Below are positions 54,026 to 55,018 of a stretch of 64,000 nt of DNA, one piece after another (positions within the stretch are counted from its first letter, which is position 1; every line of letters begins with the position of its first letter). The position numbers and the translations under genes are program-made. The notes below the pieces were generated by a model that was not told where the DNA came from, did not search any database, and was given only the letters and a program-made list of their open reading frames with translations. This DNA comes from Eledone cirrhosa (Eukaryota), in NCBI GenBank assembly GCA_964016885.1, contig OZ024741.1:171802001-171866000 (forward strand), read 5' to 3'.

Positions 54026-54358
54026 TTATATATATATATATATATATATATATATATATATATATATATATATAAATATATATATATATATATACATATA
54101 AATATATATATATATATATACATATACATATATATATATATATATATATATATATATATATATATATATATATACATATATATATATATATATATATATA
54201 TATATATATATATATATATATATATATATATATATATATATATATATATATATATATATATATATATATACATATATATATATATATATATATATATATA
54301 TATATATATATATATATATATATATATATATATATATATATATATATATATATATATA
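54026..54358. repeat. (TA)n microsatellite, about 330 bp
   Basis: Directly visible. Confidence 0.98.
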
Positions 54359-55018
54359 AACGTTTGAATATGTATAATAAAGCCAAAACAATGCAGGTAT
54401 GGACATAGAAAAAAGAATGCAATTGCAAAAGATATTGTTGACAATTCGTCTTTTACCTTAGATTTATTTAAATGTCCTTAATTTTCGAGATAATATCTCT
54501 TCTTCAGAGGGAAATAAAGGTCTCAAACCAGCGTTCTAAATATCTTGCCAAGCCATGCTGACAGGAAATAGTATAGAGTATCTGTTCTATCTCTAATGTG
54601 AAAGAGTTAAAATTAGGTGGATAAAGAGTAGTCTCCCTTTAAAAGGGGTTTGTTTAGGTTTTTTTTATATACATGCCTGTTTAAGTGTGTGGGAGAATGC
54701 ATGAAGGTGTATGTATGTGAGTGTGAGAAGATAAGTCTATTTGTAAATGTGGGGGATAGGTGTTATCTGGTGTTAGAACTGGTTTTGTGTGTGTATGTGT
54801 GAGAGAGAATAAGTGGAGGTGTAAGCGTGTGTGTGTGTGGGGTGTGTGTAAATATGGGGCTAGAAGCCCTATCAGGTTATAAATTGGGTGTTGAGTTCTA
54901 GTCTATTATTGATTGGTGGTTGTGTTTTATCTATAATTAGTGCTTCCTTAATTCTAAGATTGCCGAGGTTTCTTTCCTTAGTTTCTATCCTAACTGTTAT
55001 GGTTTTGTCGGTGTTTTT
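54358..55018 (-). mobile_element. 3' end of a Penelope-like element: GIY-YIG C-terminus, 3' UTR and hammerhead, ending in (TA)n
   Basis: Minus frame KNTDKTITVRIETKERNLGNLRIKEALIIDKTQPPINNRLELNTQFIT* (stop 54872-54874) fits the PLE EALxI...PxxN motif. Confidence 0.8.
54476..54510 (-). ncRNA. Ultra-minimal hammerhead
   Basis: cct CTGAAGA a gagat att atctc GAAA at TA agg. Confidence 0.62.

Follow-up and report, generated by a model that had tools for sequence, protein, structure and literature searches.

A 5'-truncated Penelope-like element copy with a predicted hammerhead motif beside a (TA)n tract in the genome of Eledone cirrhosa

The stretch of DNA analysed here, called the window, spans 64 kb without any N and with 33% GC, and belongs to a 416-Mb contig (OZ024741.1, positions 171,802,001 to 171,866,000; assembly GCA_964016885.1) of the 3.0-Gb genome of the cephalopod Eledone cirrhosa. 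We conclude, with a probability of about 0.88, that positions 55018-54355, read on the minus strand, are a 5'-truncated copy of a young Penelope-like element (PLE), made of the last 48 codons of its open reading frame (ORF) and of a 3' untranslated region (3'UTR) with a hammerhead motif predicted to self-cleave, likely as a dimer, and that its 3' end lies at a (TA)n tract that is its likely target. The copy measures 664 nt, has no reverse transcriptase (RT), and is a dead, non-autonomous fragment. A preliminary description, made from the letters of the window, had reported in this place a minus-strand frame, a hammerhead core, a tail, and a (TA)n of about 330 bp, and we found each of them where it had been placed. 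It had also tied this association of ribozyme and TA tract to an autonomous PLE. This holds for the family, which combines both, but not for the window copy itself. All element features described below are on the minus strand.

The window copy and its family

Reading the minus strand from 56400 to 53400 reveals a stop-to-stop frame at 55072-54872, whose C-terminal end is ...LRIKEALIIDKTQPPINNRLELNTQFIT*. Its element-derived part is limited to 55018-54875, which corresponds to residues 813-860 of the 860-aa family protein P0002 (tblastn against the window; 93.75% identity, E 2.7e-21) and is the sole PLE-coding piece across the window. Homology with the genomic copies also begins at 55018. These last 48 codons (54875-55018) represent the end of a GIY-YIG endonuclease, including its conserved E and N (KEALIIDKTQPPINN), and are followed by a TGA stop codon (54872-54874), identical in full-length copies. 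The 18 codons upstream in the same frame are sequence of a tRNA-derived short interspersed nuclear element (SINE). When submitted by itself to a profile search, as the preliminary description had proposed, the 66-aa frame gives no Pfam match because it is too short, and its identity as GIY-YIG rests on the full-length copies.

Downstream of the stop codon, the copy continues with a CA/ACAC-rich 3'UTR (54520-54871) common to all other copies (40 of the 40 scored genomic matches, and the alignment with the tandem unit of locus L030). It is followed by a minimal type-I hammerhead motif (54467-54519), recognized by a strict scan, by covariation across families, and by a model named R2, all described below. 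The terminal segment of the unit (54355-54466) ends in ...CAAACGTTTATA; the 3' ends of 18 copies align here, at what would be the start of reverse transcription. Thereafter comes the (TA)n tract (54027-54354), about 330 bp with few interruptions, which, judging from the tract itself and from the ends of the family copies, probably served as the insertion target and could have lengthened since. In terms of distances, the hammerhead core starts 365 nt past the PLE stop, and another 123-128 nt lead to the (TA)n, at about 54357-54027.

On the other side, the 5' flank (55007-55240) is a 3'-truncated tRNA-derived SINE in the same orientation as the element. It was identified by SINE copies elsewhere in the window, which match it as far as 55007-55010, and it contains a sub-threshold tRNA match at 55213-55156. 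The junction between PLE and SINE consists of about 12 nt of imperfect microhomology (55018-55007; AAAAACACCGAC versus AAAAAGCACCCAC in the SINE), 10 of the 12 nt agreeing with the full SINE copy at 54026-53700 to which it was aligned. Either the cDNA end was joined there by a microhomology-mediated process, or the template may have switched from the PLE RNA to a SINE RNA; the junction is compatible with both. Comparing the window with itself revealed no second copy of the element; only the SINE part recurs.

The genome contains many relatives of this copy. A DNA search with positions 55005-54470 gave 40 scored matches, out of 2911 first-look candidates, and all 40 are 93-100% identical over this interval. 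The all-versus-all comparison of 20 oriented loci showed a common 3' end and many differing start points: the window copy begins at 55018, while five copies exceed the 1.5-kb flank, two of these five being homologous over 3.1 kb. One copy carries an unbroken 680-aa frame, the last 42 residues of which are as in the window. Indeed, the 680-aa ORF of locus L023 (protein P0001) matches the Pfam families RVT_1 (residues 215-393, E 2.3e-13) and GIY-YIG (residues 588-667, E 1.5e-6), both above the curated cut-offs. The RT thus lies upstream in the same ORF, with the endonuclease at the C-terminus, which is the canonical layout of PLEs with a C-terminal endonuclease (EN+). The earlier assignment of the peptide to the C-terminus of a PLE GIY-YIG endonuclease is therefore borne out by its match to P0002 and by Pfam on a full-length copy, and the 48-aa tail, when checked for another placement, stays with the PLE ORF end. 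A sequence search of P0001 against solved structures returned only chance-level matches to ribosomal proteins (E of at least 0.08).

The complete unit is best seen in the tandem array of locus L030 (L030:1-9901), located elsewhere on the contig of the window, which comprises at least 2.7 units of 3127 bp with 99.9% identity between them; a change of RIKEH to RIKVH is present in its endonuclease. The stop-to-stop frame is of 900 aa, or 860 aa from the first ATG. The unit starts with CCTCATTACACAATG..., with the ATG 12 nt in, and between tandem units its 3' end joins this 5' start directly. A protein search of the genome gave 65 scored matches from 35,902 first-look candidates, the latter certainly including other RT families. 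These 65 matches are 95-100% identical; 52 of them are stop-free and 27 lie in open frames of at least 860 aa. The family is a young, high-copy PLE of about 3.13 kb, with thousands of copies that share 93-96% identity and are about 5% divergent.

The family protein bears several motifs by which PLEs are classified. Upstream of the core RT is a DKG (LPSDKGKEF in P0002), a column conserved in the alignment; the linker reads NCCRLANCPINDTDLC, with the spacing C-x4-C-x7-C; and the endonuclease has a CCHH motif (VVYRLECDKCNNFYVGST), two Cys of which (C-x2-C) sit between GIY and YIG. In an alignment of 14 proteins, C775, C778, H797, and H808 are nearly invariant, as are the DKG, H, H, E, and N columns. 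The closest named protein comes from Octopus bimaculoides (61% identity across about half of the query). Of the 211 protein relatives, those ranking highest over the full length share 33-44% identity and come for the most part from metagenome contigs of about 3 kb, and the nearest named full-length relative is a protein of the nematode Haemonchus (29% identity, E 7e-54).

The hammerhead motif

In the window, the motif is read as the string CTGAAGA-A-GAGAT-ATT-ATCTC-GAAA at 54507-54483 and its surroundings. The 5' strand of helix I, CCU (54510-54508), pairs with its 3' strand, AGG (54478-54476). The strict scan delimits between them the core CUGAAGA (54507-54501), the helix II with its loop, GAGAU-AUU-AUCUC (54499-54487), closed by G10.1-C11.1, and the GAAA (54486-54483). 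An extra A (54500) stands between A9 and G10.1, and each of the 10 other aligned relatives has this additional nucleotide position as well. There is no helix III; its place is taken by AUUA (54482-54479), that is, the palindromic 15.1-16.1 AAUU (54483-54480) plus A17. The predicted cut falls between 54479 and 54478. All four hallmarks of the minimal hammerhead ribozymes (min-HHRs; PMC4209133) are found in the window motif, and 13 of 14 aligned motifs have, judged by eye, a palindromic di- or tetranucleotide at the place of helix III.

The strict scan for core plus helix II gave two matches on both strands of the 64 kb, whereas 100 Markov shuffles yielded 0.28 on average. We also fetched, via an alignment of 30 relatives, 80 related metagenomic loci, in which a strict scan detected 11 motifs on the plus strand where shuffles predicted 0.47; the majority sit 150-460 nt after the ORF end. 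Eleven motifs including that of the window align cleanly, and eight of the nine pairs change on both sides. In this alignment, 88.9% of the cells are paired, against 26-44% with slid partners (87.6-88.9% against 23-44% over all such calculations), and the observed score was reached in none of 500 shuffles; in helix I, double changes occur in all four pairs of the alignment. The model R1, built from the 11-motif alignment, retrieved 14 further matches at E up to 1. It matches downstream of the ORF in 13 of the 21 loci that have the ORF end and at least 150 nt beyond, seven of these 13 being outside the training set. In L089, a motif with a 4-nt palindrome was found by the scan alone. This locus, together with L069 and L077, was excluded from the model alignment A5, the lengths of helix II or III being out of register. 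We did not accept L085 and L087, or the minus-strand matches in L043 and L044, as hammerheads of the kind considered here.

The covariance model R2 was made of 21 metagenomic motifs and contains no sequence from this genome. It aligns to the window motif along its whole length of 53 positions, eight of the nine pairs being standard, and scores 28.1 bits (E 9.4e-4 in a search of 228 kb). This is its best match in the window, the only other one having an E of 0.89. At the level of the family, 38 copies, which are indel-free matches only and some of which are perhaps the same place taken twice (31 distinct sequences), vary less within the 35 motif positions (0.31 variants per position) than in the 125 flanking ones (1.41); this low variation suggests conservation of the hammerhead motif. 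Across families whose proteins are 33-44% identical, the catalytic boxes are invariant while both helices covary. Four metagenomic relatives carry AUGANUA instead of CUGANGA (A3-U8 for C3-G8) with the rest intact (L049:2033-2084, L054:2147-2199, L055:2295-2345, and L068:1554-1606); a U3-A8 variant of this core pair is found in the published literature.

Copy ends and the (TA)n tract

The 3' ends of the family copies are closely associated with TA repeats. Among 18 copies with an identifiable 3' end, a count that left out two further loci without the end motif, 17 adjoin a (TA)n of at least three units: 13 run directly into it and 4 reach it via a 40-nt tail, the remaining one doing neither. 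The background coverage of TA runs in the copy regions is about 9%. The (TA)n tract is thus likely the insertion target. The tail corresponds to the 5' start of a next unit and holds the ATG. The boundary itself is ambiguous because the unit ends in TATA, the last TATA being indistinguishable from the flanking TA repeat.

At the other end, an upstream partial copy (pseudo-long terminal repeat, pLTR) is present in 29 of the 30 full-length loci found by the 5' start of the unit; nine of them extend over 658 nt or more, one measures 646 nt, and the others 46-553 nt. The 5' start has fewer first-look candidates than the 3' region (274 versus 2911), as 5' truncation of the majority of copies would predict. 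A head-to-head inverted partner of the same family accompanies 6 of the 15 truncated loci. In three loci, the inverted copy and the direct one could be compared by their identity to the window copy, which is 91.8% versus 95.8% in L004, 93.5% versus 94.3% in L016, and 92.8% versus 96.6% in L023. The family therefore displays the pLTRs, the inverted 5'-truncated partners, and the optional tail of about 40 nt that the sections of PMC8557442 available to us list as PLE traits (30-40 nt for the tail), an anatomy that is also set out in PMC11167929.

We drew the steps of a possible insertion mechanism from published PLE work (PMC11167929, PMC4209133). The endonuclease would nick the (TA)n, and reverse transcription would start within an RNA longer than the unit, either at the unit junction, leaving no tail, or about 40 nt further, leaving the tail, and would proceed toward the 5' end. 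For the window copy, it would have stopped after 664 nt, and the end of the cDNA would have been joined to the SINE via the microhomology of about 12 nt. A cut at the hammerhead, which is situated some 124 nt upstream of the start site, would part the ORF from that site, so that the templates of integrated copies would be mostly uncut. The ribozyme may then act on multimeric transcripts, for their processing or for circle formation, at low efficiency, or it may have another role.

The 5' ends of the 30 full-length copies bear on this cutting. In nine of them, the partial copy reads straight through the predicted cut site (those of at least 658 nt). Three others (L136, L143, and L148) start 13-18 nt upstream of it, within the helix II loop (ATAT/TTAT), and since two of these three adjoin a (TA)n, their 5' ends seem to have been joined through TA microhomology and not to result from cutting by the ribozyme. 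Templates consisting mostly of cut RNA would be expected to yield partial copies that begin at the cut site, with a length of 118 nt in the count used. Only L145 falls within 2 nt of it, with a partial copy of 120 nt, 2 nt of which are ambiguous with respect to the flanking TA run.

Alternative readings and related elements

Self-cleavage by the hammerhead is predicted from its sequence, and several results weigh against it or against the support of the motif. No Rfam hammerhead family (types I, II, III, HH9, and HH10) matches the window at gathering score, nor does any match when E values up to 10 are admitted, on stretches of 3201 nt and 141 nt. The motif at 55737, which looks more canonical, is likewise without Rfam match, so that we take this silence as a limit of models that do not cover forms devoid of helix III. 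Since the scan demanded the pairing of helix II in the training set, the independent evidence comes from helix I and the seven new matches only. Helix I of the window motif is of three contiguous pairs. Conservation within the family is weak evidence because the copies are young, and the zone of low variation continues about 25 nt past the motif. Folding gives -8.4 kcal/mol when the hammerhead is enforced versus -8.8 for the minimum free energy, and does not predict the AAUU dimer helix; hence, thermodynamic folding neither backs nor rules out the hammerhead fold. That the string would be a chance match in AT-rich DNA is nevertheless hardly credible: at 33% GC, loose CUGANGA...GAAA strings are indeed common in the window (10 loose matches), but the strict scan finds more than shuffles predict, the independent model R2 places 54519-54467 first in the window, and distant relatives have the same motif in the same place. 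A more serious competitor, though one we judge rather improbable, is that the conserved motif is a non-working ribozyme, either a structured RNA kept for another reason (protein binding, translation control, or RNA stability) or a relic borne by PLEs. Only 1 of 30 integrated copies has an end at the predicted cut site, the core is changed from CUGA to CCGA in the apparently recent L030 array despite its open frames of 900 aa, the Rfam models are all silent, min-HHRs cleave poorly in vitro (PMC4209133), and hammerhead mutants of another PLE insert normally in vitro, according to the part of PMC11167929 available to us, where uncut RNA is also the dominant substrate. On the other hand, catalytic boxes that stay invariant at 33-44% protein identity between covarying helices argue for a functional hammerhead, and the A3-U8 double change, which keeps the core pair in four relatives, would be hard to explain without the hammerhead fold.

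The tract could also have arisen after or during insertion, and not have pre-existed: the RT would have made it by reiteratively copying the terminal UAUA, or it would have grown by post-insertion slippage. The window copy itself speaks in this sense, against a target, as its 5' flank is a SINE and its (TA)n is at the 3' side only; so do the ambiguous boundary, the unit itself ending in TATA, and the length of the tract, which ranges from about 10 to about 330 bp among copies. We nonetheless find this origin unlikely, as (TA)n is found at the 5' junction too in 4 of the 15 truncated copies and immediately precedes 7 of the 30 full-length loci (L125, L126, L136, L141, L143, L144, and L145), as the TA run comes after the tail and not after the TATA end in the four tailed copies, and as the sections of PMC8557442 at hand report (TA)n insertion of Naiad and Hydra PLEs and propose it for Neptune as well. 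As regards the clade, junctions with (TA)n, a short unit of about 3.1 kb, the presence of a hammerhead, and, in the same sections, molluscs among the reported hosts would all suit Hydra, as would the C-terminal endonuclease and the aquatic invertebrate hosts. These sections describe Hydra as having canonical hammerheads and (TA)n insertion, no CCHH, a DKT, and a CxCx5C linker. The family has instead the CCHH, with C-x2-C between GIY and YIG and two nearly invariant H, a DKG rather than DKT, and a C-x4-C-x7-C linker rather than CxCx5C; these three features place it outside Hydra, and membership in this clade is very improbable.

The linker-less Penelope/Poseidon type was also rejected: relatives of fish, amphioxus, and sea urchin without the linker Cys are more distant (26-27% identity, E 1e-41 or weaker). 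The Neptune and Nematis clades have a Zn-finger-like CX2-5CxxC linker upstream of GIY-YIG (Arkhipova 2006, cited in the sections of PMC8557442 mentioned above), and share with the family the pLTRs, the inverted 5'-truncated partners, a tail of 30-40 nt, the occurrence of a hammerhead within the repeats, and a bias toward microsatellites. Compared with their linker, that of the family keeps C-x4-C, while the CxxC part has become C-x7-C, the middle Cys being missing, also in the 33-44% identical relatives; the linker of the Haemonchus relative is C-x4-C-x2-C-x7-C. Judged by its motifs, the family would thus have a linker of Neptune/Nematis type in a variant form.

Regarding the ribozyme, the window motif resembles the min-HHRs of Cervera and De la Pena 2014 (PMC4209133) in being of type I without helix III, in the unpaired nucleotide between A9 and G10.1, in G10.1-C11.1, in the palindromic 15.2-16.2 (AU), in its short helix I, and in lying within the 3'/5' repeats of a PLE. 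It differs by a helix II of 5 bp, compared with 7-8 bp in the Schistosoma families, and by a helix I of just three contiguous pairs, and is known here from its sequence. The PAc element (Poseidon, Anolis carolinensis; Frangieh et al. 2024, PMC11167929) offers another parallel. The 3' ends of the family copies, with and without tail, lie at two places about 40 nt apart and fit two adjacent internal starts of reverse transcription like those reported for PAc. In both elements, the hammerhead is upstream of the start sites so that uncut RNA must be the template, and the cut site gives no sign of defining ends. However, PAc belongs to the linker-less Penelope/Poseidon clade, its ORF starts inside the hammerhead, and its start sites lie 111-118 nt into the ORF, whereas in this family the hammerhead is about 136 nt before the ATG and the putative starts are 12 nt before and about 28 nt after it. 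Another type-I hammerhead whose helix III is weak or absent is that of the non-LTR retrozymes of metazoans (Cervera and de la Pena 2020; PMC7229834), for which reliance on the enzymes of PLEs has been proposed. They are short non-coding tandem repeats, unlike the coding 3.13-kb unit of this family and the window copy, a coding fragment with a single motif; the family was therefore not classified as a retrozyme.

Other motifs of the window recall hammerheads. A second one at 55750-55636 (minus strand) comprises CUGAAGAG, a helix II formed by GGUCACAGCC and GGCUGUCCCC, CGAAA, UAUAUAUA, and then GCAGU pairing with ACUGC. This motif, referred to above by position 55737, lies in a fragment of 115 nt flanked by (TA)n at either end. 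For its family there are 86 first-look candidates, and the copies found elsewhere exceed this fragment in length and frequently form inverted pairs. No PLE ORF was found within 1.5 kb of it in 11 other loci, and it matches neither Rfam nor R1 or R2. Two inverted pairs of strings, 53482-53518 (plus strand)/53373-53338 (minus strand) and 33753 (plus strand)/33593 (minus strand), are made of CUGAUGA, a hairpin, GAAA, and UAUAUAUA, with a TA run replacing helix III. The preliminary description had used the window copy to link the other hammerhead and (TA)n motifs of the window to PLEs. This extension did not survive the comparison, as they have no sequence in common with the element and no R1 or R2 match; being unrelated in sequence, they are linked by analogy only. 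Another short frame, at 55520-55420 (minus strand), ends in ...CYKCSVCTRVFKSLTGLKSHTHSAHR* (C2H2-like) and is followed, after about 60 nt, by a palindromic (GTAT)n/(ATAC)n microsatellite (55390-55260); the region 55520-55260 resembles the 3' terminus of a further retroelement copy that is truncated. The strong sub-threshold Rfam microRNA matches at 55270-55360 were attributed to this microsatellite.

Min-HHRs in PLE repeats and the targeting of microsatellites have already been published (PMC4209133 and, for the sections at hand, PMC8557442), and PLEs are annotated in cephalopod genomes in the portions of PMC13282606 and PMC8967140 available to us, where hammerheads are unmentioned. The known picture of PLEs is thus unchanged. 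In the window, an unexplained frame, a ribozyme-like string, and a microsatellite become one ordinary truncated copy of a retroelement. The field gains a young and well-populated PLE family, with thousands of copies, many open frames, a variant linker, and a preference for (TA)n, as well as a cross-family alignment of min-HHRs with covariation. The genomic count of 1 in 30 agrees with the in vitro report of uncut RNA as the usual template. We tentatively propose, as a possibility well short of an even chance, that the family represents an undescribed and recently active lineage of linker-bearing PLEs, in which a remodelled C-x4-C-x7-C linker still goes with (TA)n, and in which the hammerhead is under selection at 33-44% identity, including the A3-U8 swap, while the copies almost never end at the cut site. 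If this is true, the ribozyme would serve something other than making template ends, for example, circle formation or the control of the element RNA, and the family provides material for asking what the hammerhead of PLEs is for.

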